A program made the translations under genes and the position numbers. Below, piece after piece: positions 1,952 to 28,566 of a stretch of 64,000 nt of DNA (within the stretch, counting starts at the first letter, position 1; each line of letters starts with the position of its first letter). The notes under the pieces were generated by a model, which worked only from the letters and a program-made list of their open reading frames with translations, ran no database searches and was not told the DNA's origin. Where the stretch lies: contig OZ316896.1 of assembly GCA_973895155.1 (NCBI GenBank), forward strand, positions 7,511,278 to 7,575,277, given 5' to 3'. Source of the DNA: Marsupella aquatica (lineage: Eukaryota > Plantae > Marchantiophyta).

Positions 1952-2672
1952 GGGTATGATAGCCATGACAGAAAACAGAAAACCTGTTACCAGGATTTTT
2001 TTTGCTGTTAACAGTCAAATTTAACTGTTACCAGTAAGCGATTCCCTGTTACCAGTTTTGCATCAATCATAGCCCTTTGGTCCAAATGAAAAACTACGCT
2101 AATCACAGAATTATTCTTTAGTGAATTAGGTTTAAAACAAACAATTATTTTGTGCCATCCGATGGATGAAGAGTACTAGCAATCCTCCCTTGCAACAACA
2201 TTTTGTTCTGGAAGATAACTGAACACGGTATGGGGACTATACTCAATGAAACATTCATTCAAATTTCACTATTCGTCCAAGCTAAAAAGCGAACCTTAGG
2301 GTGGGACCCACCACAAAACAAGTGAAGAGTAGTGTCAAAATGAACTCAATCAAAATGAGTTCACTTAAATGGACAGAGTACCGTGACAAACAAATGACAA
2401 AACACCTCCTAACGATTTATTTCAGAATAATTGAATAAACGCGGCTTGAAAGATAAAACATAATGATATCAACTTACACATTTTAAATAAAACATGTTGT
2501 AATGCTTACACTACATGCGTACATAATAAAGCAAGAAAAATAAGATTTTTGGAAGCAGCGCCCGGCGCTAACTAAAAAATACTGAACAAAACAAGTAACA
2601 TATCCGTTGGGTAAAGACAAAATAGTGACTATCCGTTATATTGAACGACCTATACGGAAGTTTCGGCCCCTA

Positions 2673-5511
2673 TTATAATCCATTCAAGTTCTGCCTCTCC
2701 AACACAAGACTGACTTCGCCCACAGTCAAAATTGGTTGGCTACAAAGAGTCGACTCCTCAACCTCAAGTTTGAAAACATTTATGTACACCCAGTATAGAT
2801 GTTTACAAGGCATGTACAACTTGCCACGCGAATGTCGTAGGAAGAAGTCCTCACAAGAGCAAGCAGGGAAGATACAGATTTGCACGAAGTACGTGCTTGG
2901 TGATCCAAGGTTCTCATGGGTTCGAATTCGAAATTGCTTTCCAAAAGCATTTCCAGTCCGAAGATTCCATTCCCCATCCAAAGTCATCTCTTCTTGTCGT
3001 GCAGACTCCATTCGCTTAGTGTGACCCACAGTGAGATTAGACCGAGGTCTTGAGTTCCTCCCATTCCGACTACCCAACCGGACATTTGGCTCCAAAAACC
3101 TTATTGTTTCTGGGAACACGTTCACATTTATCCTGAGGTCAAACGAAGATGGCGCAGATTGACTCGATCCTGTTGTTTGGGCTAAGACAAGTTCTTGCTC
3201 TTCGAGGAATGTGATTTCAGAAGGAGATAGGCTCGTACCCTTGAGAACAGGCAAAATTTCAGGAAGAGGAGGAATCTGATGAACACCACGACGTGGACGA
3301 CTCTTTATAACAGGTTTGGTTTGGGCAGAACCAAATCATTTCGGAGATTGGTTTGCCCCTAAAGAGACGATGGCCCTTCACAACAATTCCAACAACACCG
3401 TCAGACGAATGGAAGCCAACCTTCTTGATACGATTTCGACACTCATCGCGATCAGAACTCCCATTGAGTGTCCCATTACATTGGGGACCTGCTCCATACT
3501 TGGACGTCCGTCGCAGCTGCCACTGCCCCAGAGGGACATCCTTCTCTAGAACAATCGTGCGTGGAAGTGGATTCTGAAGTGAGGCTGGTGCACTGAGCGG
3601 AGGTTTTGTGGATCTTGTTGTACGGGTTGTTTGAGGGGTATTGTCCAGTGAATCAGTATCACCATCTGATGTGTCCATACCAGAGAGATTCACCAATCTT
3701 GTCAGAGGATCATTAGAATTTGAGGGAATGGAGGCAAAGTCAGTTCTGTTTAGGTTTTTCTTTTTCAAACCACGAGTATTTGGTGTGGTTAGGAGAACGG
3801 TGTCATGCCGATGGGAGTCTTGTGGAGAGACAATCCCAGTTGCATGTCCCTTTCTCTTCATTGACTTGGTCACAATATCTCCGTTAAGGGGAGTACTTCT
3901 TTCCAAATCGAAGTCCGCTGCGTTGGAAAGAAGCATGTTGGTCGCATCTTCAAATAACCTTGGCGAACCTGCTTGATCGGCGGAACGGAACGCCAATTCC
4001 CGTATAGTCGGTCCCTTTCCTCTGTTCAACCCTTTTCGATATGCACTGTATCCCGCAACTTGAGACAGGGCTCGGTTTTGGTCCACTTTGCATGCTTCAA
4101 AAAGACCAACTTTTTTCTTTGTAGCCCAAGCTTTCATAGACGCATGCCTTGATTCTGACCCTGTACAGTTGGGAATCAAGGCACCTTATTATGCGCTTTT
4201 GCTCTGCCATAGTCCGAATGCAATAATCAGTACTAGCACTGTATTATCAGCGCCCGGCGCTGACACCGACAAGTATTTATAACAAACATGAAATACAATT
4301 GCAAGTATGATTCTGGAACTTTATGGACATGTTGGACTCAAATACGAGCAAATCATACCAGCGCCTGGCGCTAATATAAAGTTGATGGAACTGTAAGACA
4401 AGAGAGGAGATGGATGTCATACCACTTGAATAAAATTGCCCCACTGGCGCCATCGAACAACCCACCAGGATATCCAGCTTTGTAGCATCATGAGCTTTCC
4501 AGGGACACAGTTTCCAGATTGCCACCAAACCACAATCTCTCGGGACACGCGATACGCTACCACAAATGTTGGAACATTTCTTAGTTTCTCCCAAAGTCTT
4601 TGATGTTCCGATTGACATTCTTCGAGTACTCCTTCCTTGGAATGCCGATGGAAAGATTGATAAAAGTGAAATGCATCAGAGCGCTCCCTCTCCGGGTCTG
4701 GGTGTCCACCGAAAAAAACATTCCGCACAGCATTCCATCCAGCTTGTGCATTGTCCGCCATAAACCCTTGGATGACAACCTCCTGTAATCCATTCTCCTT
4801 GCAAACCTCAATCATAACTCTCCAAGCCTTTTCGAAAGACTCAGTGTCTTCACCTTTCAACTTGCATGTGAAAATTGTACAAAGTGCACGGAAATTATGG
4901 TCGTAGACATGCGCGCTAAAAGTAAACCAATTGGTTGTGATACGCTGCATCACATCGAAACTGACCCAGGCTCCTTCGAGTCTTCCACCAGGTTGCATCT
5001 GTCTCAAAAGATCCACACCGGAACCGTGACCCTTCGTGGTCATTTTAAAGACGTGAGGCCTGTCGTCTTGACATCCCTGACCCGGGAGCAAATACCTCTG
5101 CAGAAACGACAGGTTAATCTTCTTCTGCATTTGCGAGAGAAAATCAAGTTCACCCCAACCCTTTTGGTCTATCCTAACGCTCCGACAAAGAGATGCAAAC
5201 TTCTAGGGAGTGGAAAGTACCATCAGAGACTTCCATATTTCAGTTTCTTCGATATCGACCATGTCGTCAACATGTTCGCAGAGAGCTTTCACTATGGACC
5301 CTGTAGCAGAATTCAAGATCCCAGCTGGTTTTGCCAGAGGATTGGCTTCATGATTTTTTTTAATTAAATCCTCAGCCATCTTCTCCGCACTCCTACAGAA
5401 GGTTTTTCTACCTGGATGGTTATGCTCACCTATATGAATTGCCAGGCGGGACATATGACTACATGTTTCCGCATCAAGTAATACTTGCGGGTACATATAG
5501 AAGGCCTTCAA
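2673..5511 (-). pseudogene. Mutator-like (MULE) transposase with C-terminal SWIM zinc finger; 5' part missing, spliced, disrupted
   Basis: IHIGEHNHP (WRKY/GCM-like tail), VSFDVM, FMADNAQAGWNAV...DAFHFYQS, GSESRHASMK (catalytic Glu region) and CSCEDF...PCKHLYWVY (SWIM). Splice donor at 4422; in-frame stops. Confidence 0.75.
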
Positions 5512-5512
5512 G

Positions 5513-8500
5513 TCATGAGATCAATGTGTCCCTTTTTTTCTCCTGCATATCTTCCTTCAAAATATCGGAATAATCCTCTCGACTTGGCTTGATTGTCTCC
5601 TCCAGGTCGGACTCCTCCAATACAAAGTGACCGGTAAAATCCTTGAAATGCTTTTCCCAATCAGGAACCCGATCTTGGGAGACGCCAAGGAAAAGAACCA
5701 TGTCCGCATCGCCTCTCATGTGTTGCGAAGGAGCATTAACCAAATAACTCCTAATGAACGAACCATATTCAAGGTGCGCATTATAGTTCTCCGAGAGATC
5801 TCGAACAGCTTCAATTATTCTTGCAAGAATAATACCAGGATGAACAAAAAAACAATTGTTACCAGATCATTTGTTGGTGTGACGCCGATGACATGGTCCT
5901 TATTCTTTAATCTGATTAACTAGGCTGCTATATGCAAGGAGTAGCTATTGATATTGCATAACAATTAGCAAGATGGCAAGAATAAGGGCAATCATGGCAT
6001 TAAGAGTAGGGGAATAAAAGCTATGTCACGGGTGGTCGGCGACCATATCTCTTTCAATATGTCACCAAATCTGGATCTGTAAAGAGTATTGGAAAGATCT
6101 GGTCAAGGCGAGTAAAATCGATATAAAACACTCGGGAAACGGAGGTGTATTAAGGGAGATACGACCTGATTAGTGTGACGGGTTAACTTGTGGCCGGAAT
6201 TAGCGGGTTCGGCTTCAGTTTCGGGTTAACCCAAAGCTCGGCCATGGCTTAGCTTAGGTAAGCACGGCTTCAGCTTAGCTCAAGTAAGCACAGCTTCAGC
6301 TTAGGCTTAGCCCGGGTTCGGATTAGATTGATCCCGGGTTAGAGTTAACTCGGGTTAGCCTAAACTCGGGCTCAAGTTAGCATAGGTAAGCTCGGGTTCG
6401 GTCTCAGCTTAGGCTAGGTTAGCGGATAGCGGATAGCGGGTAGCGGGTAGCGGCCTAACTCGAAACCACGGGTTAGCTCTACTTGGGTTAGATAGGATAG
6501 CTAGGTTAGCCGAACGCAGGTTAGCTATGTAACTCGGGTTAGCGCAGCAGTGAGTACCCCCTCTCGGTTGCGGGGGCATAACTCTCTGTGTATTTGACCA
6601 AATCGGCTATAATTGACCTCGTTGGAAAGAGGAGCTCAAGCCGCTTCCAACGCTGCTATCCACGCAGAAAATGGTTGAATAGAGAAATCGGGAGAGGAGG
6701 CGCAAGCTCGCAAAAACCATGGAGGAGGGCCAAATCCGAAGTACATAGCCAATTCGAGATAGAAATAAAGTTGCGAGTTAGGGTTCAGTAGTTAGAGATA
6801 GTGGCGGCTCTGTTAGGGTTGGGATGGGGCTCCAGCAACGTAGTATCCACCCATTTGGGCTCAGTATGAGAGTATATAGAGCAGCCCCCCGGTAGAGGCA
6901 GGGGGGCTTCAGTTGTGTGATCTCACTTAGACTGAGCAGCAGGGAGGAGCTCTGTGCAAGCAAGGCTGGACTTGGATGCTGCGTGTTGGGGAGAGCTTGG
7001 TTGTGCTATTACTCAGGGAGTAATCAGCCAAGCTTCACAGCTCCAACGGGTTGCTAGGTTTGCGAGCTGGATTGTGGCTCTTTCTAGTGGGCAGCACAAC
7101 TGGGTTCTTTTCCCCCGATACAGAGCCTTGGTGATAGGTGATGTATTGGTGATTGTAAACTATGGGGAGGATGTCAATTTGATTTGTGGTGAGCACATTA
7201 GGGAGGCTGAGATACTGATTGAGGGGCAGCAGAAGGAGCATTTATAGTTTGGTTTGGCAAGGCTAGGTGATCCATGGGGAGTCCCGGCCTTTGTCTGGTA
7301 GAGATCTGTACGTGCCCCCAAGAATGAAGTGCAGTGAAGGAGGTTGAGTTCAGGGTTGAGTTTGCAAGGCAAGTACGGGATTGGTTCGAGTCCAATCTGT
7401 CGTCGCAATCTGGAGTGAGCCGGGCTCAGGTTCAGGATTGAGCTTGCATGGCAAGCACGGGGCTTGCGGGGCAAGCATGTCGCAACCTGGAGGAGACAGC
7501 CTTCAGGCCTAGTGTTCAGATCAAGTGTTCTCAGTGAACTATTGTGCACATCTTTGAATCTAATTGAGTTTTCCTCTCAGGCCTCATTTCTCTCATGGAT
7601 GTGTGTGTGTGTGAGGCAATCTGAGTGTATGACGAGACTAGGAGCGCCACTGAGAGATGTACCGGGTGCATTGAAGTGGGTTGGGTGAGGGCTGTCACAG
7701 CTCTGATTGCTGAGAGTGGAATGGCAGAGTGGTGGGGCAATGGCTTAGAAGTCCCTAAGCCGGGAATCAGTCAGGTGTCACTGGTTTATGGGTACATTTC
7801 GGCGGCGGAATAGAAATATACCTATGACAGTAAGCATACGTATAGACATATGCGCACCGTAGCGCTAGGCCCTGTGTGTACGGGCCCGATATGAAGACCC
7901 CTTCTCACCAGAACTATCATGAGCACGGATCTGATTCCCAACCTTGGTTCCTAGGGATTGAGCTTGGGTGATGTGTGACAGAGTCTTGCTATGATAGTCT
8001 GGTGTTAAGGGCATAAATTGGTGTTTACCGGCCTTCACAACATCCCTTCGTGATCCTCAGGTACAAGGAGATGGTTTTGGCACCCATAGTGACGTTTTTG
8101 GTGTTAAGACCCATGTCAATCGCGTGACAGTTGGGATATTCACAACGATCTTCAAGAAGTTCAAGATTTTGGATTGCGTCCAAACCGGTTTTCCAGTATG
8201 GGTCAAATCAACAATCGCTAGAGATGCCAATATTGACTCCTTGCAGCTAGCCGAATCAAAAGGAGGATCAGCAGATGCGAGCAGATTTACAGTATAGAAA
8301 ACTCGGTAAGGATCCATCCTTGCGCGGAGATGGCCGCCAAACCTCTTTTGATGAATATTTCTCAACCTATGTTTCAATGGCTCCGGCATCTCTGCTTTTA
8401 ATGACACCTTCACAAGGCTCTTGAAATATCCAGTGTCCACCATTGCACAACAACGATCCAATTCCTCATTTGTGAAATTATATTGCTGAACTACATCACC

Positions 8501-11440
8501 CCAAGTTGATCCTTGCGAGAAAACCCCTTCGTACTTCTCCCGATAAAATCAAAGTATTGCCCCCTTAAGTTTGTCAATATACTTTGCTTTTCTTGCCAAT
8601 TCTGACATGGCGGGAAGATCAGTCAAAGCATGTTTCTTTTTCATCAAAAGCGCCTCCCCCAAATTCACTTTGTGGAGGATTTCCAAGATGTCGGATTCTA
8701 CTGCACCCTCAAAAACCTGGAATGTTGTCCCTATCAACTGTTTTGCTTCTTTTGATTTTCCAGTCATTTGTCCGGTTGAATCCAAAAGATTACCCTTGAG
8801 CCAATTATTGCAAACCTCTCTCCATAAAGAGTAGAGCTTCTCGGGAGCAAACAAAATCCAATTGTACCCACTGATGCTATTCACCTTTAACGTAACTTTT
8901 GCAAGTGTTTCATACTCCTGGGAGGAAAGACCAAACAACTCAAAGTTAGCCAGCTCAAAGTTTTGAATCCCAAAATACTAGAAAGGCTCTACACGACTCT
9001 CGCGTAGAAAGGAGAGAAGGACAAAGTGTCTGAATTTTGTTCACAACTCTCATGGAGAACCTACCTGAAATTCTGGAGATTTCCGACCCGATGGAAGTGG
9101 ACGAGCTGGTCGCCCCATATCATTGTATTGCATTCTTGCATGTTTCACTTGGTCAATAAATGGAGATGAAAACCGATGTGCCTCCGCCTGAAGGTTGTTC
9201 GCGTGTGAAATTTCCACAAGAACTTTCACCGGAGTTGACCCTTTGAGAATTCGCGCTCGACGATATTTGAGCAAATTGGCTGTTTGCATGAGAGATGGTT
9301 GAGTCTTTGAACTCCGGATAATTTTCTTGGCGGCCATTGTGGAATGTTGACCACTGATGGCAAAGAACTTGAATTCCGCAAGCTTCTTGGTGTCAATATC
9401 CTTTCCCGCAAGGTCAATTAAACTCGGTACTCCGTTGATCATCTTGTAAGAAACCAAATCTGTAGGTAAAGGTTCTTGCCCTGCATTTGTCATCATCAAT
9501 TGCGCAAGATGGTTGACATGCTCCTCATTGAGGAGTCTCTCATTCATCTTTGCAGGAGGGGGATGGATGTTTTCAACCGGGATAGAAAAAAATTTGGATA
9601 TCCCGAAACAATACCAAGACTTATTCAACTCCGATGTTTTTTTTGCAGTCTCCAGACGAGCACGGTCGACAACTAGCTTCGCGGAACTAGGGTTCTCATC
9701 AATATCCACATCTTCCTGATTTTTCTTTGCTTTCTTGGGCTTGCGAACGACAGCTTGAGAGGTGATGACAACCTTCTTCTCAACGTTTGGGGCCTTCTTC
9801 TCCACGGCTCTGACCATGGGAGTTTTCACAACAATTTCAGCCGACTCTGTGGCCGTTCCCCTTCGCTTAGGAGGCTTTGCCCTTGATTCCACAACTACTG
9901 ATTCAACATCAAGTTTTGCTTTTTTCTTTCCCTTTGGTGAAGGATCTTTTACGACTCCCTTTCGCTTCAGCGTCCTGATCTCCGGTTTGACCTTTTCAAC
10001 TTTCTTCCTGACCAACGCAGATTTCTGTCCAACCCGAGACTTTTGAGACGGTTTCTCCTCCTGAGGTTTTGCTGGTGAATTGACTTTCTTTGCTTTGCTT
10101 GATTTTCGTATTCTGTCCTCGATTCCTTGCACTTCCTCAACAACTTGAATTCTTTTTTGAGAAGACGTTGCCTCTTCTTGTTTATCAACCGAAGATACAT
10201 TTTTTCCACCTTTCACTTGAGGCATGACTTTGCGCTGGTCAGAAACAAGAACTCTCTTTTGAGATGGTTTCTTGTCTTCTTTTTGTTCTTCCCGTTGAAC
10301 CTTCTTGCGGCCTGTTTCGCCGCAGGCGGCTCATCTGCTTGATCAACGACTTTCACTCTCTTCCGAGGTAGTTTAGCTTCTTCTTTTGTTTTCTCAAAAT
10401 CAACCTTCTTCCGGCCTAGTTTCCCTGATGGTGATTTTTTGTCCATTGCTTTTTTCTTCCCACTGGGTGTGGATGACTTTGACACGACACCAGCTTTCCC
10501 CTTCCTGGGCAAAACTCCGTTTGAAGTCTTTGCATATCGCTTCTCTGTTGGAGGCTTTGCTGGGGGGATGACCTCATTTTGTTGAATTTCCCCACTCTCA
10601 ACATCATTGTTAATTGGTTCAACTCCACCTTCTAAACTTGTTGACTCTGACTCATTCTCTGACCCCGCCCGATTCTGAAAAGTCTTCTTGCTCTCTTCTT
10701 GGACACTTCCCTCCTCTCCATCATCCTCATTTTCTGACTCATAGACTGATATCGTTTCATGGGACTTGCTCTCTCCAGAGGCGGGCGAGTCATTGTCGGA
10801 GGAGTCATCCTCGTCCTTTCCCTCCCCATCATCATCGTCAATCTCTTTTCCACCAGCTTCTTTCTTCTTTGGGCGTACCAAGTCTTGGATTACTGGATGC
10901 CCTCGAATCCATTCCTCCACCTTTGTCTCACTGAAGTGTTTCATGAACACAACATTCGGAGAAATAGTCATCTTTCTCCTCCAGTCATCGTCTGGGATCT
11001 TCATCCGCATTATGTGATCCACCTCTCGTGTCCAAGAGATAAAATATTCCGACTGCTTCATGACATAGGAAACCCGTCCAAGCCCCATAATTATTTCATC
11101 AGCCGTAAAGACCCGATCAGGTGAGAGCCATCTATCCGCCAAAGGATCAAAGAAACCGCATGAGACAACATTTGTGTCCTGGTTGTAAGGTTCAAGACAA
11201 TGTGCTGAGAAAAACCCATGAAGTGGAGCAACCATCAGCTTGAAATTCCAAGAACTCTCAGACTCCAATGTCAGCAGAAGAGATGGGTTGTCCTTTGGGG
11301 ATGCAAATCTCGTACAGTACGAGAGTGCCAAAACTCATAAAGTTTCTTTGTCCATTTTCTGTTTTAACTCCCCTCACAATCAAACGGTAGTTGCCTTTGA
11401 CTGGTTGCAATTCAAAAGACCATGAATTCATAGTCGCCAA
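5513..11440 (-). pseudogene. ParB-1: spliced gene with acidic/Lys-rich N-terminus, ParB/Srx-like domain and a possible degenerate methyltransferase-like C-terminus; split by element B1
   Basis: FSIPVENIHP...NERLLNEEHVNHLA...FFAISGQHS resembles the ParB/Srx core. A GT-AG intron at 8978..9064 joins ORF 9050..10225 in frame to 8549..8938. The frame VNIPT|NDLVTIV continues across B1. ADPPF motif in ORF 8057..8461. Confidence 0.6.
5878..8129. mobile_element. Family-B solo-LTR-like element B1 (2252 bp, non-coding), inverted relative to B2
   Basis: Ends TGTGACGCC...GTGACA; exact 5-bp TSD GTTGG (5873-5877 and 8130-8134); reverse-complement homologue of 18083..20579. Confidence 0.92.
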
Positions 11441-12132
11441 AATATTCTCAAGTTTTGCGACCGTTGGAGTTTCAATCCGGAGCCTGTCAAAACAGAAATA
11501 AACAGAGCGAACTCCTAGAAGACAAGGAGAAATATGTCAAACATCTGCACGACACTCGCGTAGAAAATAAAGTGAGCCGACAAACTGTTGCTTCATTATA
11601 AACAAAATGATGTGAAAACATCCTTTACAAAATGGCCTCTTTGGCGTGTAAACAGTCCGGCAAAAAATGACTATCAGAACTTTGGAGATAGTCTTATGAG
11701 CCATTTGAGCTCATCATGATTTGGAGTCAAAACATTGTCCAGATTTAAGAAAACAATCTGATCCGCTAGAAACATAAGAGTTCCCTAACTCAAAGTATGC
11801 GCACACATGTGGCCATGAAGGCAACAATTTTTCTTTTCCAATTCAATCCATCGCACTTTGGTATCCAATTGTCTTTCCCTCTCTCAGCCATCGGCCAGCT
11901 CCTGTCGCAAGTCATGAACTTGACGATCTTGAATTTTCTCCATCTCAAGGGGTATAGCGACGGAGACAGGAAATAGGTAAACAAGAATTTTTTTTCCTAT
12001 TTTTAATATGCTATTACCAGGAAAAATCCACTGTTACCAGGAAAAATGACAATTTAAAAATATCTCATAAAACATGTTATTTCCAAAAAAAATTAACAAT
12101 GCAACATTTTTGGCTAGCTTTGGGCGCTACTA

Positions 12133-13336
12133 TTAGCAGCGCCGGGCGCTAGCAAAAAAAACTGGCCAACCGAAACAAAAAATTTCAAAAAAAATTCCAC
12201 CCATTTTCCTGTTACCAGTTTTTTTCCTGTTACCAGTTTCTGTTATTAAATCCTGTTTCCTGTTTGCTATCTTTTGTAAACACCTCATCTCAAGAGAAGC
12301 TTTCATGGACTTTGCCGCTACGTCGCAAGTAGTCAAATGCTGGATCTGTGCCCATCGATACTTTGCAAACATCTGCTCCCGTTCGTATTCTATTGCTTCC
12401 TTTTCATCCTCCAACGCTTTTTGGAGAATGGAATTCTCCATCAAACTCATATCAAATGCAGAAATACTTTTTTGTAACAATCCCTCAATCTTCTCAAAAT
12501 CGTCCTTGCGATGAGCGCCTTCCTCTAGAAAAGTTGAACGAACAAAGTCACATGAACAATGTTTTGATTCCATATGGTACATATGAACGAGGATTCTACA
12601 TGACAGTCGCGTAGAAAACATGAGTTTCTACACGACAGTCGCGTCGAAATCCATTATCTCCAAGATTGGAGAATTGGTTCTACGTGAGACTCGTGTAGAA
12701 CTAAACAGGAAATTCTAAATTCTGACATAACGGCTCTCAAATAGAGACTATGGGTCGATGAAAGAGACCCATTCTACACGACTCTCGTGTAGAGCAGACT
12801 CAAGTTTAGCACAATCCATTGAAAACAGAGAAATGTAGGTCAGAATTACCTTTGAGCTTCCTCAATGCAGTGAGAGCAAGTAATTCGGCATCATTTTTTG
12901 CCAAATAAGTCGTCATTCCCTTCGCATGTGCGAACTCCTCCACAATAATGTCAAGGACCGACGAGTTGAGCAAAATAAAATAGAAAACACAAATGATCCA
13001 AGGTCCGAGGTCCGAGGTCCTTTTATAGTCCGAGATGAGCGTGAAAGAGCATATCGTCCGAGGCGAGCGTGAAAGAGCGTATTGTCCGAAGCGAGCGTGA
13101 AAGAGCGTGAAACAATCTGAGGGCCAAGCGTGAGAGAGAGAGCGTGAGAGAAAGAGAGAGAGTGAGAGAGAAAGAGAGAGAGTTCGTGATTGAGAGAGAA
13201 AGACAATGAGAGCGACAGCGAGCTGGAAAGCAACATATACCCCTTCCACGTGGAATACTGTCAAACAATGATTGCGGTTGCTACCCGGCCGCCAAACCTG
13301 ACACTCGGGATCTGGTGGAGGACGTGTCATTAACAT
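12133..13336 (-). other. Possible small spliced gene remnant (short coiled-coil exon) with CT-rich leader
   Basis: Helical ORF segment (DDFEKIEGLLQKSISAFDMSLMENSILQKALEDEKEAIEYERE) and a donor-like site near 12850; no recognisable domain. Confidence 0.25.
13035..13203. repeat. GAGCGTGAAAGAGC repeats grading into a (GA)n microsatellite
   Basis: Read directly from the sequence. Confidence 0.85.
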
Positions 13337-13701
13337 GGCAAACCACCACCCGCCGCCAAACCAATCCGCATTTATGGAAACGACTGGTCACCACACTCCA
13401 CGCCGCCACAAAAAAGTACTACACGACAATCTGGTAGAGTTGAATGTCTGAAATTCTTGCACCCCCACTCACTATATAACGTGACAGACCACTTCATGCA
13501 AGTCATTTTTTGAGACCTGACTCATTCGTGCCTTCAGTCCGAGGTGGGACTGTCGTTAAAGCGTGCTCTATTGTTTCTGAAACTGCATCGGTACAGTTTC
13601 TCATACAGTTTTTCTCCTGTCATTTTCAATTTTGTTTTAGTGATTGTGTCAGTATGTGAATGCATGTGCTTGAGTCTTTCCCATTGGGATGTGGTTTAAC
13701 T

Positions 13702-14293: not shown

Positions 14294-14489
14294 AGATACA
14301 ATAGAATTTTCTATTTAATGAAAGAACCTTCAACTTTGTAGATGACTGTCTCCATTGCTTGTTTAAACTGGATTTGAATTTTCAGTTCTGTGATATTTGC
14401 TTAGATTAGAGTTAGACATTTTCACACGAGCCTCATGTAGGCTGTTTTAAAAGATGTTTTTGTTGCAAATATTTTTCCTTAGATCCAAA

Positions 14490-17799: not shown

Positions 17800-18082
17800 A
17801 ATCCTTTCTCGACGCGAGACTCGCATGGAAGAAACTTGGTGATGCACGACACGTCCTAATTGTCGGGTTCAGGATTGTGGAAGAACAATAGGCGAGGTTG
17901 GAGCTGGTTTGTTCCAATCATTTTCCGCACGAGGCTCGTGTAGGCCGGATTACTTAGCTCGAGGATCATTTTTCAGAAAGTGAAAGGTGTGTACTTGTAC
18001 TCAATGTCATATTCACTGCAATGGCGCGCATATCGACCTTTGGCTCGTGTCTGTTGTGGCCACAATGATGGTTTGGTGCCGG

Positions 18083-20579
18083 TGTCACACGATTGACATG
18101 GGTCTTAACACCAAAAACGTCACTATGGGTGCCAAAATCATCTCCTTGTACCTAAGGATCACGAAGGGATGTTGTGAAGGCCGGTAAACACCAGTTTATG
18201 CCCTTAACACCAGACTATCATAGCAAGACTCCGTCACACATCACCCAAGCTTAATCCCTAAGAACCAAGGTTGGGAATCAGATCCTGTGCTCATGATAGT
18301 TCTGGTGAGAAGGGGTCTTCATATCGGGCCCGTACACACAGGGCCTAGCGCTACAGTGCGCATAGGTCTATACGTATGCTTACTGTCATAGGTATGTTTC
18401 TATTCCGCCGCCGGAATATATGTACCCATAGACCAATGACTCTGACTGATTCCCGGCTTAGGGACTTCTAAGCCATTGACCCACCACTCTGCCATTCCAC
18501 TCTCAACAATCAGAGCTATGACAGTCCTCACCCAGCCCGCTTCAATGCACCCTGTACACCTCTCAGTGGCGCTGCTAGTCCCATCATACACTCAGATTGC
18601 CTCACACACACACACATCCATGAGAGAAATGAGGCCTGAGAGGAAAACTCAATTAGATTCAAAGATGTGCACAATAGTTCACTGAGAACACTTGATCCGA
18701 ACACTAGGGCCGAAGGCTGTCTCCTCCAGATTGCGACATGCTTGCCCCGCAAGCCCCGTGCTTGCCATGCAAGCTCAATCCTGAACCTGAGCCCGGCTCA
18801 CTCCAGATTGCGATAGCAGATTGGACTCAAACCAATCTCGTACTTGCCTTGCAAACTCAATCCTGAACTCAACCTCCTTCACTGCACTTTATTCTTGGGG
18901 GCACATACATATCTCACACCTCCATTTCCGAATGTCAAGTTACGCATGCACAGTTGACTCGACTTCAAAGCTGGTACCAGGCCTAACGGCGATCTACCCC
19001 AGACTGCAATGAGGCCCGGCCTCACGCTTGCCCTGCAAGCTCATCCCTGGCCATAAATCCCTTAGTGCTCTCCACCAGACAAAGGCCGGGACTCCCCATG
19101 GATCACGTAGCCTTGCCAGACTGAACTGTAAATGCTCCTCCTGCTGCCCCTCAATCAGTGTCTCAGCCTCCCTAATGTGCTCACCGCAAAGCACATTGAA
19201 ATCCTCCCCACAGTTTACAATCACCAACACGTCACCTATCACCAAGGCTCTATATCGGGGGAAAAGAACCCAGTTGTGTTGCCTACTAGAAAGAGCCACA
19301 ATCTAGCTTGCAAACCTGGCCAACTATTGCTGTGAAGCGTGGCTGATTACTCCCTGAGTAATAGCACAACCAAGTTCTCCCAAACACACAGCTTGGACCA
19401 AGCCCAGCCTTCCTTGCACAGAGCTCCTCCCTGCTGCTCAATCCACGTGAGATCACACGACTGAAGTTCCCCCCCCTTGCCTCTACCGGGGGCTGCTCTA
19501 TATACTCTCATACTGAGCCCAAATGGGTGGATACTACGCTGCTGGAGCCCCATCCCAGCCCTAACAGAGCCGCCACTATCTCTAACTACTGAACCCTAAC
19601 TCGCAACTTTATTTCTATCTCGAATTGGCTATGTACTTCGGATTTGGCCCTCCTCCATGGTTTTTGCAAGCTTGCGCCTCCTCTCCCAATTTCTCTATTC
19701 AACCATTTGCTGCATGGATAGCAGCGTTGGAAGCGGCTTGAGCTCCTCTTTCCAATGAGGTCAATTATAGCCGGTTTGGCCAAATACATAGAAAGTTATG
19801 CCCCCGCAACCGAGAGGGGATACTCATTGCTACGCGCTAACCCGAGTTATATAGCTAACCCGAGTTCGGCTAGCCTAGCTATCCTATCTAACCTTAGAAG
19901 AGTTAACCCGTGGCCTCGGGCTAAGCCGCTATCCGTGTCCGTGTCCGCTATTCATGTCCGTTGTCCGTGTTAGTTGTCCATGTCTGTTGTCCGTGTTTGT
20001 TGTCCGTGTCCGTTATCCGTGTCCGCTATCTGTGCCTGCTGTCTACTATCCGTGTCCGTTGTTCGTGTTCGTTGTCTGCTATCCATTGTCTGTGTCCGTT
20101 GTCCGTTGTCCGCTATCCGTTGTCCCGGGTTTAGTCTAACCCCAATCTAAATCCGCTAGCCACTAGCCACTATCCGGTATCTGTATCCGCTAACCGTGTC
20201 CGCTAACCTCTATCCGTATCCGCTATCCGTGTCCGCTAACCTCTATCCGTATCCGCTATCCCGGGTTACACAAACCCGTCACACTAATAAGATCATATCT
20301 TTCCTAATACACCCCCGTTTTGAGAGTGTTTTATATCAATTTTACTCGTCTTGACCAGATCTTTCCAATGCTCTTTACAGATCCGGATTTGGTGACATAT
20401 TGAAAGAGATATGGTCGCCGACCACTCACGACATAGCTTTTATTTCCCTACTCTTAATGCCATGATTGCCCTTATGCTTGCCATCTTGCTAATTGTTATG
20501 CAATATCAATAGCTACTCCTTGCATCCAGCAGCCTAGTTAATCAGATTAAAGAATAAGGACCATGTCATCGGCATCACA
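18083..20579. mobile_element. Family-B solo-LTR-like element B2 (2497 bp)
   Basis: Ends TGTCACAC...GGCATCACA; exact TSD GCCGG (18078-18082 and 20580-20584); empty site visible in the neighbouring repeat unit near 20977. Confidence 0.95.
19926..20260. repeat. Degenerate TCCGTG/TCCGTTG/TCCGCTA 6-7-mer microsatellite inside B2
   Basis: Read directly; the B1 counterpart (TAGCGGA/TAGCGGG at about 6420-6453) is much shorter. Confidence 0.85.
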
Positions 20580-21247
20580 GCCGGATCACGAGATTTGGGT
20601 GGGATGAGCTCAATTTCCTTCATTATTGAGGTTAAATTGACAGGTGCTTTTGTATCATAATTGTGCTACATGAGGCTCGCGTAGGATGTCATAATCAACT
20701 TATGACTTGCAAATCTCGGATCTTATCACAGACACCCATATTCACACGGCATGTACTAATTTTCGGGTTGAGGACTGTGGGAGAACAATAAGCGAGGTTG
20801 GAGTTGGTTGGTTCCATTCACTTTCCGCACGAGGCTCATGTAGGCCGGACAGCTCTAGGATCATTATGACCTTTGGAAAGTGAAAGGTGTGTACTTGTAT
20901 TGAATGTCACTTTCACTGCAATGGCGCGCATGTCGACTTATGGCTCGGGTTCGTTGTGGCCACAATGATGGTGTGGTGCCGGGTCACGGGTTTTAGTATC
21001 ATAATTGTGCCATACGTGGCTCGTGTAGGATGTCATAATGAACTTATGACTTGCAAATCCCGGATCTCATCACACACACCTTTATTCGAGAGGCTTGTTT
21101 CTCTCCTTCAAGTTATGCTTTGTGATGAACTTCTGGCTCAGTCTCCAACATCTCTCTGATCAAATCTCCTTCTGATCAAATCTTCCTTTTCCAAATTGAG
21201 CATTTGACAACCATTTTGGATCGTGGTGATTTTCCTTAACTTTCATA

Positions 21248-21733
21248 TTGGCACTTGGGAGACGATTGAGGAGTTCTTCGGCATTACATACGGAGGAGAG
21301 TTCTAGAGCATTACAGGCAGAGAATGCAAATGAGGAGCGGTCCAACTTCTCTATGTGCTCGGAGCCATCCAATAGTTTCAACTCTGGAGTTGCTACAAGA
21401 ACAGAAACCATTCCTCCTCTTGGCAACCAAACTGTGGTTAGTCATGACAAGACAAACGACCAGGCACCTGTTGCAGATGAGGTGGAGGAGGAACAGAAAG
21501 AGCAAGAGAAGAAGCCGACAAAGGCCACGGAGGAGGAACAAAAGAGGATCCGTCGGGAGGAATGTCAAAAGATGAGGCATCGTTGGAAGAGGGAGCATTT
21601 GGCTGAGTATTACGGACCTTTGAAAAAGAAACGAAGCTCCGAGAGAAGTCTGAAGGAATGGGCAAGGGAAGAATTTCTAGATAGCGATAATGCGGACTCC
21701 GACAAGTGGATGCCATCATCCTGGAACGATTGA
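21248..21733 (+). CDS. Hypothetical charged low-complexity ORF, probably the 3' exon or remnant of a TE accessory gene
   Basis: 161-aa ORF rich in E/K/R with an NLS-like LKKKRS; no domain recognised. Confidence 0.3.
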   Translation: MALGRRLRSSSALHTEESSRALQAENANEERSNFSMCSEPSNSFNSGVATRTETIPPLGNQTVVSHDKTNDQAPVADEVEEEQKEQEKKPTKATEEEQKRIRREECQKMRHRWKREHLAEYYGPLKKKRSSERSLKEWAREEFLDSDNADSDKWMPSSWND

Positions 21734-23845
21734 ATGAGGCATTCTGGAGTCAGCTCTCGGGAGGTATTTTGGAGCTGTTTTTTGTGCGGATGCGATCATC
21801 GCGTAGGAATTTGTTAGTTGATCATGCATTTTGTTTAGGTGTGAACAGAAAGTGCTTGCGTTTTCCGCCTTAGTGTTTTTCGCTTGGGAGGCTTCGGCGT
21901 TTCTGAGCCTAGGAGGTTGATTTCAGGGATGCCTACGCCGACATCAACCAGAATTTTTGTTAGGCACATATGTTTCCTATGAATATACCAAGCTTATCTT
22001 TATGTGTACAAATGTGGAATGTTGTTTTGTTATGCAAATTGGATGTTGGTGCTCTTTGATTTGCAATCCCCTTGTTCTTTGGTCTTGGTCTTCGGCAGAG
22101 AGGAGCCTCTTTTCACACAACGCTTCTCCCTCTGCGTGTGGGATGGGAGGAGAGAGTATAGAGGAGCCTTTATTCTCACGATGCCTTCTCCTATTGCGTG
22201 TGTTGGTGGAGGAGAGTGGCTCACGCTCGATTGCAGATGAACGGCTTGTGCAAAGTCCTTCGTCTATCATACTCCTCCCTCACAACTAGACTTGTAGAAT
22301 TCCTGTATGCAGCATTCTAGGCATCGATAAAGCTTGCAAAAATGCTTGCTAAACTATATGCTCCTCTGGACTGTTACACTTGGTCCCGCCCACTTTTTAT
22401 GATCATATGTAGTCATCTCCAGTATCTTACTCTTCATTGAAGCTTTGAGTGCACCTTTTGTTCCGTCGTGCCCCTTAGGTGTCAGGGCGACTCTTGTTGT
22501 TGAGCTTTTACTCTTTACTCTTGTGCGACTCTCTGGCCCTCTTCTTTTTGGGGCTTTTAGGGGTATGTTGTGCATGTTCTTTGTTGTGTGTGAGGCTGCT
22601 TGTTCCCCCTTGTCGTGTGGCTTGTCGTGGCTGGTCTCTATCTATTAAAACACTCATTGGGATGAAGTTAACAACGTGTGAACCTAAGCCCCTTTTCTTA
22701 TGCTATGTCTCAAAAGTTTGTACCAAATCACAACTTGAAGTTTCCAAAATTGGTGCTGAAGTATCCGGAAGAAAATTGGAATTGTTCAGAACCCTTATTT
22801 AAAACTCAAAAAGTATGTTTTCAAATTTCTAAAAAGTAACATTCAATTTTCCAAAAGTACACTATCAAAATTCCAAGTGGACTATAATATTCCAGAGTTA
22901 GTGAAAGTATTGATAAATCCTGATGTGTACACTTGATGTTTCTAGACTTGGTGAAGTAAATCCGATGCCCGTAAATGCAGTTCAAAACTCTTAGACATCC
23001 CCTTGACACATTTTACATGAGTCAGTTCGTGTTTTTTGATGCTTAGTCTTATGGATATGAGTCAATCTTTGCACCAAATATCATTTGAAAGTCTTCAAAA
23101 TGCTTGTAGTTTCTGGTGGAGGGGTCTTACCCGTGACACGTTCCATATTAGCGCTCGGCGCTATCATTGGAATGCTCAAAATTATAGTTCTGATACCAAT
23201 GGAATTCTGAAAAATATTTGTGGATATGGATGAGTTTGTATTACGCTCTCGTGATGAGTAGCATCGAATCGGATGTTGTTTATGATAGCGCCAAGCGCTA
23301 ATAAACACTTATGGATTAATCGGTCAAAAAAGGGTCCATTTTGTCCATCAATGCTAGAATTCCATTGGAATTGTGTAAAAACACATATGTGGACGATTTG
23401 TTAGCGCTCGGCGCTATTGAAATTAGTAGTTTAAATTGGGTAATATCGAGTTGTTTTTGCTAGCGCTTGGCGCTATCAATAAGGCCAAACGATCAACGGT
23501 CATATTTTATCGGTAACATTGAGGATTGCTGGTCACGTGTAACATTGAGTTTGCTGGTCACATAAGACGGTTGCTGGTCCAATGGTAATCTTCCAAGTGT
23601 TCAGATCTATTGGTGTTACCGTTAAGCAACACTCTAATGTGCTAGAGACTCCATCTCTTAACCTTCTATGGGGACTTGGCGCTCGTGGGAGATATGTGAT
23701 TCTCTAGGAGCAGCCTGTTCAAACGTGACATTCTGTTCCTGAGTCTGTTACTCCGTACTGGCCTTAGGGGCTCTGGGAGAGTTGTACGATACTATTCGAC
23801 GTTCTACTCAACGCCATCGCCATCTCTTAGTGGGGTAATACAAGG

Positions 23846-26800
23846 ATGGGAGATAGTCATGCCGGTCATTTTGAGTCCTCACAGTCCTCTTTTTCAGGTT
23901 CTGTGTACACCCGTCGTGTGACTCGGTCCGTTGCGTCTCATTCACATTCAGACATTGGCTCAACTCTTCCAACCACGCGATCAAGAAGGGGGAGAATGGA
24001 CATGACTGAGGAAGTTGCGTGGGTTGATTTTGGTGTTGCTGGACTTTCAATGGACGAGTACATATCCAAGCATGTCTTGTCCTTTGGCAAAGATTTTAGA
24101 GGATTGGAGACTCAGGAGCCTCCACAAATTCCTCTGTGTCGATTGATTCATATGGAAGTGGTGCGGATGTTGCAGAAGCAGAGCGCCTCCATTGACAAAT
24201 TGAAGAAGTCATTCCGGATTTCTGGATACAATTCACGCATGGGCATGCCATTTTACGTACAGCCAACGAATGCGGATGGGGTTCCACAGATTTGCACTAA
24301 TGAGATTAGAGCCTCTTGGGACCCAATCTTGGTTGCCGTGAATGACAAGTTCGAGGAAGAGTGTGACGCTGTTCCTGATTTCAGAGTTTTGAAGGACAAG
24401 ATGTTTTGTGTCTTTGATGGAAATCACCGTTTGTATTCATGGTCGATTGTGACAGTAGAGCATCCGGACAACATTAAGTACCACCCTCGTGTGACTTGCA
24501 TTGTTTTCAATGGAGATAAAGGTTCCCTCGTGGAGCTTGAGGCTGCCATGCACGCTGTCAACCAGTAAGTCATTCCTCCGGATAACCTCATTTAATATGA
24601 CGTACTAGTTCAAGATGTACTTTTGATGTGATATTATCTTTGGTGTTTTACTAGCGCCCGACGCTACTAATTTCCATTTAAATTTTGACGTAGGTTGGGA
24701 CAAGCTATGGTTGAGCCATCTTGGATTCTTGATGCTGACAGAATCTCTCGTCTTTTATCCCGCGACCTAGAGCACTACAAACCCCTCATTGATGCTACAA
24801 GTTATGCAAAGTTTGAAGCCATTCAAAAGAAGACTCGCAAGGGTTCTTGGTATACACACAAGATGCCACAAGACGCGCTCATCTACATTTTGTATGAGAA
24901 CAAGACTAAATCTTACACAAACCAGTTCAAAGTGGACATGGATTTTGCAGCAGCCCAGGGGACTCCTTGGTCTGAAGAGGAGACGCAGAAGAGGCATGAA
25001 GGTATGATGAAAGAAGCGACAAAAGATTGGGCTATCAAAGTAACAAAGATCACTCCATTGCTACACCCTGATTTTGGTGACTACTTGGCCACATGTGCGG
25101 ACATGTTTCCCGTGACAAAGAAGAACAAAAGAGAAAAGAAACCCAATACAGTTGTTTGCACTATGGATCGCGCTCGCCTGTTTACTGCAGTGACTTATCT
25201 AGATCCAAAGCCAAGGTGTACACTTCTTGTCGCCCATTGTACTCCAGAGATTCGGAAACAGTTCTTTCATCCGACTAGTGTGAACGACAATCCAGTAAAA
25301 CAGTGGTGCCATACCTAGCATATCTAGAATTCAGTGGAGGAAATTGCTACTGGATTGATCCTCACCTCGCTCGAGCAGATTTTGGATCGCATGCCAGATG
25401 ATCGTCTAGTCAAGTCTGGTTGTGAGTCCGTGGATTTTCTCATGAAGTCCATTATTGAAGAATTCAAATCATTTGGAGACCTTGTCAAGGCTAAACTTTT
25501 CAACATAATGTGGCCATCAAAGTATGCAGACAAGGAGGACTACACTGAGCGGAACCAGAAACGAGCCAAACGATACGTTTACCATTTCTACATGTGGATG
25601 GAGTTGCGATCTCCTGAGGTTTTGTGGGCTTACCCTGGTGCATTTCAAAAGTGGGTGATGATCAAAGATGGTGACCACCTTGTTGATCTATATTCGATGT
25701 ACCCAGCTGAGGGAAAGTTTCCACCTCGTGCCTTGTCAGAGTGGGAGAGACTCCACTGCCCATGGTATCTAGACACTGACAAATGGGATCTGCCTTTTGA
25801 CGAGGTGGAGAAAGACGCTTTCATGAAGTTGCAAAAGTCACAAATCCCGGCAAGGTATGTATCGGAGATGAAGCAAGGTCTTGCAATTGAAGTGGACGCT
25901 TTGACAACTAAGCTGCAAAAGAAATGCGAGACAGTCGTCGTGCATGTTGATCGGAGCCGAAAGCCAAGAGTGAAGGCCAAGAATGAATCTGCAGCTCCCA
26001 GTGAATTAACTCGATCTCTTAAAAAACATAAGTATGCCTCTTAGGATTCAGTAAGGGATTCCCGCTCTTGTTCGTATGACATATTTTTCCCCAATTGATA
26101 CTAGCGTCGAGCGCTATTATGAGAACTAGTTCCGTTGAGTAACGTATCTCTGTCTTTCAGGGGGAAGGAAGTTGGATGCCACCACTGATGTAAAAGATGA
26201 CGCTACTCCTCAGGCCTCTAAAGCTAACACTGGTGCGGAAAATACACCAGATCCGGGAACCCTTGGGGAGAGTGGAAAGGCAGTGGTTCCAGTGGACGCG
26301 ACAAGTATGAAGAAGAAGAAAAAGAGAGGAACACTTGATGATAGGTTCGGATCTTCGTCCCGAGATTCAGTTGCATCTACTGGATTGCAAAGAGATGTGA
26401 GGAATTTCAAACAAAAGTGTACTCGACATTGTTTTGTGGAGTTGAGTGTTACAGAATGTTTTGATTCCCTGTTTAACAAGGGAGAAAAGCCGGACTGGGT
26501 TTCTAATATTGAAGGTTGGGGGAAAGAGCTGGTGAAGTCTGGGGATTGAGCAAAAGGGGTTGTCCAAGGGGGAAAAGAAAGAGCTTTTGGAGTTGATGCT
26601 GGTTTCATATATCTTTCGACTGGGTTGAAACCAACACTTGTGGATAGGAAGGTTCCTAAATGGAACCTACAAGATTATACAATTCCAAGTGCCTTCTTCA
26701 GAACAATGGATCCTTTCCTAGCAGATGATGGATTGCTAGCGATTTTGCACAGGGGCGACTACGACCAAGTTTCTGAAGTCATTGCAGCTTGTCAAGATTC

Positions 26801-28002
26801 ACAGAAATTTCAGTGTATCTCGACACACAATGTTGTGATGGGCACTCCAATGTACAGGCCTCGCTCAGATATGCAGGTATGTATAATGGCGCTTGGCGCT
26901 ATTCCAGAGTTTCTATTTTGTGTCCTCCTTTGGACATTTGACGGTGACGCTAGCGCCAGGCGCTAGTGTGGCATATCCTCTTCATGCAAGGTTTCTATAT
27001 TCTTGACATTGTATCTGATGTTTATTCTGAACAAAACGTTATTCGATGTGCAGATTTTTATGCTCACCCTCAATGTTTTTGGGCGTGTTTTGTCCAAAGG
27101 TAGGGTCCCGAAGGATCCCAAATTTTTGGCCTCTTTCACATACAGAGGATCCTTTGATAACCAATCTCATTGGTTTTCCCGTGCCAAAAAATGATCCTCT
27201 ACCGGAGCTTGCGTTTGCTGGGAATTCAAGGCTGCCTGTGGTTTTCATGTAGTCAATTTTAGGATTAATTACCCTCCCTGGGGATATTGTCATGGACTGG
27301 ACTGTTGGGGCCGGAAGTACATTTGTTGTTGGAGATCATTGTGGGAGGTTTGTAGTCGGGATTGAAAATCGTAAAGAGTTTCTTGACACTGCCACAAAAG
27401 TTTTCTTTGGACTTCTCGAGAACAAAGAGGCCTCCACATCCATGCCTCCGCACCGGCAGGTGGGGAGTAAGAAGCAGGACAGACTCAGTGTCCAAAGATG
27501 ATGGTGCCTCCAAGAAAGTGGTGAACCTCGGGTCTTCTGAATCTGAGGATAATGAAGAGTCTTCTGAGTAATGATCTTCAGCTTCCCTGTCTTTATTTTC
27601 TTTTTAAGGGTGACGTTAGTGTCTCCAAAATTCCACCATTTTCCCGGATCCAACTAAAGATATCGGATTCAACTTTCCAGGTCTGAGTGGAATCTTTGGA
27701 AGTGCTTTCAACTACGGAGGAAAGTCGCTAGGAATGCAATAGAAACCCCGGAGAAGCCATTTGTCTTGCCTTCCTATGCGGAAAAGGCAGCTCGAAAAGC
27801 AAATTTTGTGAGAATGCTGACTTGGGAAAGCAAAGGCCTGAGGCTCAAAAGGGGCTCGGATAGGAAGTTTATGAGGAACCGCTATGTCGATGACATCGTC
27901 CCGAACGAGTATGTAGACGACAAAGCTGAGTCTACTGATAGATCACAAAGTAGTGAAGAAGAATCAGAACTAGATACGACTGATTCAGAATCTGATGGCT
28001 AG
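23846..28002 (+). pseudogene. ParB-2: five-exon gene, N-terminal ParB/Srx-like domain fused to a C-terminal beta-class N6-adenine/N4-cytosine DNA methyltransferase-like domain
   Basis: IPLCRL...VVRML...IDKLKKSF...FCVFDGNHRL (ParB/Srx GxHR). FFRTMDPFLADDGLLAIL and TLPGDIVMDWTVGAGSTF...GRFVVGIE resemble the SAM-binding motif I region of N6_N4_Mtase. Introns 24565..24693, 26051..26160, 26877..27053 and about 27569..27680. Premature stops at 25316, 26042 and 26547. Confidence 0.75.
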
Positions 28003-28566
28003 CCAGACTTTAAAACAAATGAATAGTTTTTGGATAGAGATATAGGCTATTTTACAAAATAGCGCTTGGCGCTATTGTGAACACACGTAATATTGATGGG
28101 TGTTTATAAAGTGAGACGGACTGTCCAGATTGCTTTTTGACTATACTTTCCTCTATGAAGAGGACAATCTTAACTTGGGATGTATTATAATTCAGTGATA
28201 TTAGAATATGACTGCCCCCTTCCCAATCTTTCATCAATTGGCATCTGATGGTCTTTAATTGATCTCTATTTTTTAGGTCTGTTATTGAGGTCTGTATACT
28301 AGCACTAGGCGCTAGTATACATTTGTTTTTGGGCATACTTTTGCAGATAGATGTTTTGAATGAGGTTTTGGGTATTCTAGACTGTTTCAAGACTGTAGTG
28401 CTGGGCGCTAGTATTGCGATGTGTTTCAAAATAACGGATTTTAGAGGTTTCAATTTCATTTTGCGAGAGATGTAGGATTAGGGAAGATTTTTTTGGTGCA
28501 GACATTTGCTGTTATGAGCTTTACTGTTTGCTGTTTGTTGTTTGCTGTCACCGTGAAAAGCCTCGT

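Follow-up and report, generated by a model that had tools for sequence, protein, structure and literature searches.

How might a transposon in a land plant recognise its own DNA, and could a protein of the bacterial ParB type serve that end? The question is raised by a stretch of 64,000 nucleotides from the liverwort Marsupella aquatica (assembly GCA_973895155.1, contig OZ316896.1, positions 7,511,278 to 7,575,277, forward strand), here called the window, which as a whole is a nest of repeats. The original prediction saw in it, between positions 1952 and 28566, one giant DNA transposon with two transposases, two ParB-like genes with methyltransferase tails, and two families of palindromes by which the element might mark itself. 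We instead assign these parts to two elements: an outer, Mutator-like element with palindrome A and a ParB-methyltransferase gene (gene 2), and an inner, Sola-like element with palindrome B and a likely ParB-like gene (gene 1). We put at roughly 0.55 the probability that these unrelated elements each have their own palindrome and a ParB-like gene whose product binds it, keeping the element's promoters expressible. The copy of the nest in the window is dead.

The palindromes were counted in a 21.9-kb core, which is what remains after two later insertions, B1 and B2, are subtracted, and the remaining 42 kb of the window served as the outside comparison; expected counts were taken from Markov-3 simulations. 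Palindrome A, TAGCGC-YNR-GCGCTA, occurs at 16 sites in the core with at most two mismatches (expected 0.15), and palindrome B, CTACRCGA-NNN-TCGYGTAG, at 18 sites with at most four (expected 0.05), which bears out the claim of two families with at least 15 copies each. The outside comparison yielded no B site and three A sites. One of the latter, at 40101, falls within a second copy of gene 2, in its intron 1; the others, at 7860 and 18339, have two mismatches and occupy the equivalent position in B1 and B2. Confinement to the element thus holds for B and not strictly for A. The placement of sites in introns and intergenic DNA, also noticed originally, is pronounced: none of the A sites and one of the B sites is coding (33 of 34 non-coding) in a region that is 61% coding (p ~5e-13 on modelled exons, whose limits come from homology and GT-AG models without RNA support, the splice sites being predictions). 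The one coding B site, at 16466, falls within a 108-nt GT-AG segment (16403-16510) that keeps the reading frame, is poorly conserved and may itself be an intron. Wherever an intron is modelled, in gene 2, gene 1 or the outer transposase, it contains a site, the predicted transposase intron (~4186-4422) having two A sites and that of gene 1 (8978-9064) a B site. Four B sites lie in 169-bp tandem units (13722-14303), and the A sites, at 2556-4359, 12115-12137 and 23149-28396, have unrelated flanks.

The two families sit in separate, nested zones (Table 1). Once a miniature inverted-repeat transposable element (MITE) is assigned to the outer family, the inner zone holds none of the 16 A sites and all 18 B sites (Fisher p 4.5e-10, with zone limits drawn partly from the sites and with the MITE and the junction at 5510 defined independently). 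That assignment follows from the MITE's ends, which match the left (1952) and right (28563) ends of the whole composite (left-left z 4.8, right-right z 4.4, 0 of 500 shuffles each; the four other end pairings gave z 2.3-2.7). The MITE also contains A sites 12115 and 12137 and copies of the subterminal repeat CTGTTACCAG of the outer ends, a candidate transposase site separate from the palindromes. It is flanked by a 9-bp target-site duplication (TSD), CATCTCAAG, whereas no TSD surrounds the composite at its 1952 and 28563 ends. The composite's flanks differ (TGTTGGAAC / CGTACGTAA): the left is one retroelement, the right is Copia, and the continuation of the left flank is absent on the right. 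The mismatched flanks and the missing TSD together imply that recombination or deletion has taken place.

We therefore regard the locus as very probably a decayed nest, a Sola-like element inside a Mutator-like one. Its extent had been nearly right, the right end falling at 28563 and not 28566, with the MITE overlooked as a third insertion. B1 and B2 are later insertions, as first stated, each with a 5-bp TSD; contigs in four of four runs join the empty site of B1 (5872>8130), that of B2 is likewise joined, and that of the MITE (11940>12286) is joined in two of four runs, with nine letters fitting either side. Deletion has removed the left end of the inner element and the first 280-380 residues of the outer transposase, which is truncated on its 5' side at ~5510. 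In tblastn, full-length relatives of this transposase align no further than 5502-5514, and no part of the window matches their N-terminus; 21100-23100, considered as a place for the missing part, was rejected by the same search. A diverged contig of 872 nt tracks gene 1 to 5501; for the ~430 nt beyond, no match to the window is listed.

A single giant transposon that requires both transposases, both ParB-like genes and both palindromes as one system, as was first proposed, is very unlikely in our judgement. Matching ends do bracket everything, and contigs 97-99% identical, with a depth of ~150-220 in X1, cover both the inner block and 21811-22914, a hint that the whole nest multiplied as one block; these contigs lack B1, B2 and the MITE, a hint that such copying preceded all three. 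Nested insertions are also described as fixed in giant Ectocarpus families (PMC12477816). Against this, A and B do not mix, both genes are truncated at 5510, there is no TSD, and the outer gene pair occurs elsewhere without the inner pair. In X1 the contig depths sum to 1531-3822 across the outer transposase, ~3000 in the bins of the MITE, 434-1097 across gene 2 and 157-498 across the inner block; the roughly tenfold step from outer transposase to inner block recurs in four of four runs, although contig depth does not equal copy number and such contrasts are hints. The depth profile gave no position for the inner/outer boundary within 21100-23140.

Table 1. Features of the nest and its surroundings, in positions of the window
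Feature	Position	Strand	Remarks
Decayed composite	1952..28563		outer Mutator-like + inner Sola-like + MITE + two solo long terminal repeats (LTRs); no TSD
Outer left end	1952..2060		GGGTAT...; subterminal CTGTTACCAG repeats at 1984, 2025, 2046
Mutator-like DDE transposase, 3' part	2673..5514	-	SWIM-like end; 47 relatives
Deletion junction	5501..5520		truncated gene 1 3' end fused to truncated transposase
Gene 1	5513..11334	-	acidic/basic N-terminus, likely ParB-like domain, helical region, DPPF near 8260
B1, solo-LTR-like	5878..8129		TG..CA; TSD GTTGG
Palindrome B, 18 sites	8989..21028		all inside inner element
Gene 1 ParB-like domain (likely)	9053-9700	-	patch reads SGQHS
Small coiled-coil-like reading frame	11780..12590	-	split by MITE
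MITE of outer family	11950..12285		336 bp; 9-bp TSD CATCTCAAG; inserted in inner element
Sola-like transposase, frameshifted	14490..17799	+	divergent from gene 1; PF25273 DUF7869, E 2.3e-28
B2, inverted copy of B1	18083..20579		TG..CA; TSD GCCGG
Zone free of A and B sites	21100..23140		contains inner/outer boundary
Four perfect A sites	23149..23475		370-700 bp upstream of gene 2
Gene 2, pseudogenised	23846..28002	+
Gene 2 ParB/Srx domain (predicted)	24047-24565	+	followed by helical region
Gene 2 predicted introns	24565-24693, ~26032-26160, 26877-27053	+	each with A sites
Gene 2 beta-order amino-methyltransferase	26550-27501	+
Three A sites	28060..28410		downstream of gene 2
Outer right end	28440..28563		...AAGCCT; interrupts Copia reverse transcriptase/RNase H frame
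Second gene 2 copy, partial	39500..40760	+	64.5% identical; A site 40101 in equivalent intron 1

Both cargo genes had been described as ParB genes with methyltransferase tails; the description stands for gene 2 and is weaker than stated for gene 1. The first exon of gene 2 leads to a family of 364 clusters at 50% identity (E <= 0.001), and among the 150 clusters listed many stop where the window's intron 1 starts. Named relatives of the window proteins, at ~30-34% identity, come from Riccia sorocarpa, Adiantum nelumboides and A. capillus-veneris. AlphaFold modelled the gene 2 domain with a predicted local distance difference test score (pLDDT) of 95.8 from a 105-sequence alignment; the deep alignment was needed, since a single-sequence model reached only 34. 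In Foldseek the best 25 rows listed are ParB, Noc, PadC, KorB and sulfiredoxin, with probabilities up to 0.99, a query TM-score (TMq) of ~0.4 (7bm8, 7bnr and 6sdk, these at E 0.03-0.1) and E 0.03-1 overall, and in VIA the top 12 of 14 rows belong to the ParB/Srx superfamily (best Z 7.2, root-mean-square deviation 3.1, 96 aligned). On these models the domain is firmly predicted to have the ParB/Srx fold. The structural half of the check proposed at the outset thus succeeded, as did the methyltransferase profile, whereas the Pfam ParBc profile matched neither the window's frames nor 47 relatives; sequence searches of the PDB returned chance matches only. A [DE]GNHR patch is present in 118 of 168 family proteins and reads FDGNHR in both window copies; the nucleotide-binding patch of ParB has the consensus G-x-x-R, GxRR in the bacterial proteins.

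The tail of gene 2 matches PF01555 at 27253-27501 (E 6e-6). In its family the methyltransferase motif IV precedes motif I in one chain, and motif I is present. Riccia protein P0203 (1207 aa) has the full plan, a ParB-like domain, a helical region and PF01555 (E 5e-5), and both it and P0054 align along the exons of window gene 2. UniRef labels P0201, P0203 and P0204 of Riccia 'Trimethylguanosine synthase', likely a misannotation. In the Atlas, the nearest neighbours of P0203 are two streptophyte clusters (0.95, 0.93), followed by phage fusions of ParB_N with N6_N4_Mtase (0.82-0.83), which are leads only. Sequence search found no relatives of the ParB domain in viral contigs or prokaryote genomes, viral contigs gave no match for motif B or the transposase, and a phage search returned three short motif-I matches only.

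The second copy of gene 2 differs from the first at 27, 15 and 61% of first, second and third codon positions over 378 codons, a pattern that indicates purifying selection, and an A site has been kept in its intron 1 across that 61% third-position difference, as the proposed pairing of protein and palindrome would have it. This copy, a third remnant of the outer family in 64 kb, is interrupted upstream by Copia and cut at ~40756 by a CACTA-type end.

Gene 1, split by B1 and frameshifted, carries what is likely a very divergent ParB-like domain. Its look-alikes in the Atlas, which come from a language model, are eukaryotic clusters (Basidiomycota, Mollusca, Porifera; 0.94-0.95), a cluster in which 35% of members carry ParB_N (0.92) and one in which 31% carry DUF3723 (0.94); the PHROG 1033 ParB-like profile matched gene 1 and gene 2 weakly (E 0.17 and 0.11). 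A DPPF motif, read by eye, follows a hydrophobic strand, and the gene is truncated ahead of motif I, which was lost through the deletion at 5501-5520. The DUF3723-bearing look-alikes are ascomycete proteins. DUF3723 is a conserved cargo of Starships, with ParB unmentioned in the portion of that source available to us (bioRxiv 2021.12.13.472469); judging from the Atlas resemblance, this cargo may hide a ParB/Srx domain.

The two transposases differ, as predicted. We filed the outer one as Mutator-like on what we take to be its DDE, D/CxxH and SWIM motifs, read by eye; the Pfam MULE profile gave no match (0 of 35), and a SWIM profile matched weakly (E 1.5 and 0.17). The inner one matches DUF7869 (E about 2e-28), and we presume it to be of the Sola type from its QLDN..NKN..FLxxGHTHxDxD motifs. 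Sola transposases are described as having no Pfam model (PMC5751038).

We examined the best 80 of 395 relatives of the outer transposase, on metagenome contigs; they form 56 clusters, of which 17 have at least 5 kb upstream and 14 at least 5 kb downstream. A relative of gene 2 lies beside the transposase in 4 of the 56 clusters, head-to-head as in the window at L050/51, L060/61 and L080 (3 of the 17 clusters with enough upstream sequence) and downstream at L036. Divergent pairs of a transposase with a ParB-like, DNA-modifying gene are thus found in the window's outer element, L051, L060 and L080, the window's inner pair being so arranged by position only. The block formed by gene and transposase is ~80% identical between L051 and L060, whose flanks differ. 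A de novo search found ACTTT-N8-AAAGT in these two, and it was subsequently seen in L036. In its exact form, ACTTTY-N6-RAAAGT, this palindrome M occurs 6 times in L036, 2 in L050, 3 in L051, 7 in L060 and 7 in L061, and never in the remaining 75 (556 kb; expected 0.02-0.04 per locus). Inverted-repeat arrays therefore adjoin the ParB-like gene in both window modules and in 3 of 4 external clusters. Motifs A and B were found in none of the 80 loci. One protein family with different palindromes by lineage fits lock-and-key divergence, in a small sample, and agrees with the suggestion of one site family per protein: gene 2 and its second copy are accompanied by A, gene 1 by B, and the related loci by a third palindrome. 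The arms of M have no CpG, so the palindromes share no single target base.

These loci also bear on the possibility that the palindromes are sites of the transposase, which would activate cognate copies, with the ParB-methyltransferase a passenger or a sequence-nonspecific protein. In Arabidopsis, the AtMu1 transposase by itself can activate in a sequence-specific manner (bioRxiv 10.64898/2026.08.24.746577). In the window, the split between A and B follows the transposases just as it follows the ParB-like genes, and the MITE retains two A sites. Yet close transposase relatives that lack the ParB-like gene also lack M: in a midpoint-rooted FastTree tree (~900 bp; 31 of the 80 loci plus the window, short loci excluded), L036 falls in a different clade from L051 and L060, and the sisters of both have neither gene nor motif. 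M sites are concentrated in the ParB-like gene and upstream of it, whichever side the transposase occupies, and in L036, L051 and L060 none lies within the transposase match. Distinct CTGTTACCAG repeats are available as subterminal sites, and the second gene 2 copy still has A in its intron. We consider this explanation unlikely. That the dyads are sites for a host transcription factor, captured and multiplied independently of the cargo protein, would fit their position in non-coding DNA, their clusters at promoters and their multiplication in tandem, but related elements use wholly different dyads, A and M, beside one gene family, which suits lock-and-key divergence better than a conserved host factor; we hold this reading to be extremely improbable.

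Comparable cargo is known from algae. Sola1-1_Ec32 of Ectocarpus is a 21.5-kb Sola1 element with a gene for a 1104-aa protein, ParB-like with an N4/N6-methyltransferase, on the strand opposite the transposase; Dinatale et al. (2025, PMC12477816) propose that this protein binds to the element encoding it and modifies that DNA. By its description the element resembles the window in being giant, of Sola type and furnished with a divergent ParB-methyltransferase gene. It differs in belonging to a brown alga and in the absence of palindromes from the main text; the window has two modules on two superfamilies, nested, with defined dyads. In red-algal Plavaka elements, PAG3 is a ParB-like gene adjoining tandem inverted-repeat arrays, for which self-recognition was hypothesised; homologues are reported on Chondrus Mutator and Zisupton elements, with a weak structural match to 7BNR (Petroll et al., bioRxiv 10.1101/2025.02.11.637652). 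By description, the likeness to our case extends to the ParB accessory gene, the inverted repeats and the 7BNR match. PAG3, however, joins ParB to a 2-oxoglutarate (2OG) oxygenase, PF01555 being found with SET on the separate PAG2, whereas the window proteins unite ParB and PF01555, and the window's sites are scattered through introns in addition to forming tandem arrays.

The best-studied transposon accessory protein that recognises and de-silences its own DNA is VANC of the Arabidopsis VANDAL elements. Its family-specific motifs lie in introns, intergenic and terminal DNA and are multiplied by tandem repeats (Hosaka et al. 2017, PMC5735166). A Mutator-type element with an accessory gene and family-specific non-coding motifs, as for A and B, is common to both systems. 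VANC motifs are 8-9 bp long and all point the same way in an array, and the text available to us does not call them palindromic, whereas the window's sites are palindromes; no similarity of the window proteins to VANC turned up, and the function of VANC is demonstrated where ours is proposed. Phage ParB_N + N6_N4_Mtase fusions and ParB-terminase loci (Iyer et al. 2016, PMC4738411) have the domain order of the plant proteins and are the nearest named Atlas clusters to P0203; the plant proteins differ in their length (~1200 aa), long helical insert, splicing and location on transposons. The eukaryotic ParB-HTH Dam family of the same source belongs to another methyltransferase group. MpDN4MT1 of Marchantia, a prokaryotic-type beta amino-methyltransferase, writes N4-methylcytosine (4mC) in a liverwort (bioRxiv 10.1101/2021.02.12.428880); likened by description, it is a host gene with TSPPY, acts genome-wide in sperm and has no ParB mentioned in the portion available to us.

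Bacterial ParB/parS, Noc and KorB share with gene 2 the predicted N-terminal fold, the position of the arginine patch and multiple palindromic sites. The patch itself reads GNHR and not GxRR, and no ParA-type Pfam match was found among the 27 window frames scanned; a segregation role for the window proteins is unlikely. In bacterial ParB the ParB/Srx domain is a nucleotide switch that binds cytidine triphosphate (CTP), and a helix-turn-helix reads parS. Because of that division of labour we place dyad reading outside the ParB/Srx domain, probably in the central helical region or the target-recognition part of the methyltransferase. Each ParB-like protein would bind its own dyad as a dimer; the [DE]GNHR patch would bind nucleotide, and the protein may then load at sites in promoters and introns and spread from them. 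Its methyltransferase fold might mark local DNA with 4mC or N6-methyladenine (6mA), or shield it. The element family would in this way stay expressible against host silencing, and new families would evolve new protein/palindrome pairs, as in VANC/VANDAL.

We think binding of the cognate palindrome by the ParB-methyltransferase somewhat more probable than its absence. If the protein does bind, activation or anti-silencing would be a better guess than repression. A KorB-like repressor or silencer, acting in autoregulation, copy-number control or deposition of a repressive mark, would suit the presence of KorB among the top structural matches of the gene 2 domain (Z 6.8), the clustering of sites just upstream of the ParB-like gene in the window and three other loci, and the absence of a protection signal in CpG content described below. 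Sites are also found in introns, downstream DNA and the MITE, however, which is the VANC pattern, and purifying selection together with spread over several superfamilies fits a benefit to the element, although restraint could be a benefit too. We judge such a role distinctly unlikely, and continue to favour self-recognition that keeps the element expressible.

Several results weigh against that reading. The methyltransferase motif IV is D-x-P-x and not DPPY/F in seven of seven aligned relatives (DLPT/DMPS/DMPT/DVPF/DFPI) and YLST in the window; methyltransferase activity is uncertain on this ground, and catalysis by the ParB-methyltransferase seems, from its sequence, somewhat doubtful. The A and B sites themselves show CG>TG/CA decay, to which their departures from consensus are often due. 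CpG observed/expected (o/e) ratios of 0.57-0.89 in parts of the element overlap the 0.54-0.68 of neighbouring retroelements; CpG content thus gives no clear sign of protection for the window copy, as expected of a dead copy. Gene 1 is not detectably related to the gene 2 family (hhalign 0.4%), and its ParB-like region found no homologue among longer proteins, which is weak evidence. Its tail matched no Pfam, NCBIfam or PHROG methyltransferase and scored below shuffles on the gene 2 profile. Its link to a Sola-like transposase comes from a single locus; gene 1 has no match in the 80 external loci, among them three with Sola-like transposases (L046, L049, L073). L080 has a ParB-like gene and no copy of M at up to one mismatch, and the motif-free sisters of the M loci may have lost their entire interior, L034 retaining a 500-bp remnant. 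Finally, dyad arrays near Mutator-like genes in L046 and L064, and another at window 44860-48001, have no detected ParB-like gene. These arrays and L080 also count in favour of the palindromes as transposase sites.

The ParB-cargo type and the self-recognition hypothesis are already in print for brown and red algae, in Sola1-1_Ec32 and PAG3. A search of the open-access literature found no land-plant report of ParB-cargo transposons; new here are that occurrence and the explicit gene-palindrome pairs, which make the hypothesis testable. The locus brings ParB cargo into genomes of liverwort and fern type, which have full 5-methylcytosine (5mC) silencing, and supplies the palindromes A, B and M, all three different and each paired with a ParB-like gene, which the main-text passages on the algal elements lack. 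With the intact Riccia proteins, cognate and non-cognate binding, nucleotide dependence and the writing of 4mC or 6mA are now directly testable. If the idea is true, a bacterial CTP-clamp fold is at work in plant chromatin and may offer a programmable anti-silencing tool. A broader proposal, possible but on balance unlikely, is that several DNA-transposon superfamilies of seed-free land plants carry phage-derived ParB-methyltransferases with private, fast-diverging palindromes in lock-and-key pairs, where a nucleotide-gated clamp would load at the dyads of its own element, spread, write 4mC or 6mA as a mark of prokaryotic type and so shield only its own family from 5mC. This would amount to an epigenetic code specific to each family and encoded by the transposon, possibly related to the DUF3723 of Starships.

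Some further features of these sequences may be recorded. No element bounded by terminal inverted repeats and a TSD was found in 11 long external loci. In L046, L049 and L073 the Sola-like (DUF7869-type) transposase lies 5-6 kb upstream of the Mutator-like one, a juxtaposition that resembles the window's. A fragment at L051:14390-14587 (+) resembles the family's methyltransferase motif-IV region (E 0.0013) and lies downstream of the transposase, apart from the upstream ParB-like gene. The array in L046 (14888-15617) consists of ACYAGGTGGCCACCWRGT in 144-bp units, and that in L064 (1313-2089) of AGCCTAGG-NNN-CCTAGGCT.

Within the window, the boundary zone contains short frames at 21230-21733 (+) and 21977-22641 (-), lysine/glutamate-rich and others; they had no tblastn match in the 80 external loci, and the 21230 frame had no Pfam match. 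A nearly identical 13-mer occurs at 5507-5519, at the deletion junction, and at 21104-21116, just past the last B-bearing repeat; the pair may have arisen by chance, or may be left over from the insertion of the inner element or from the deletion. Another piece of the B1/B2 LTR end lies at 59259-59500. The palindrome family at 44860-48001, TGGGATAC-NNN-GTATCCCA, has 11 sites at up to three mismatches and the 3-bp spacer of A and B, and lies partly in 178-bp tandem units within an element of ~3.6 kb with CACAGTGACGGACCAAAC inverted ends. At 41495-44699 a tandem array of ~577-bp units in a CACTA-like element is strongly depleted in CG (o/e 0.27) and CHG (o/e 0.43).

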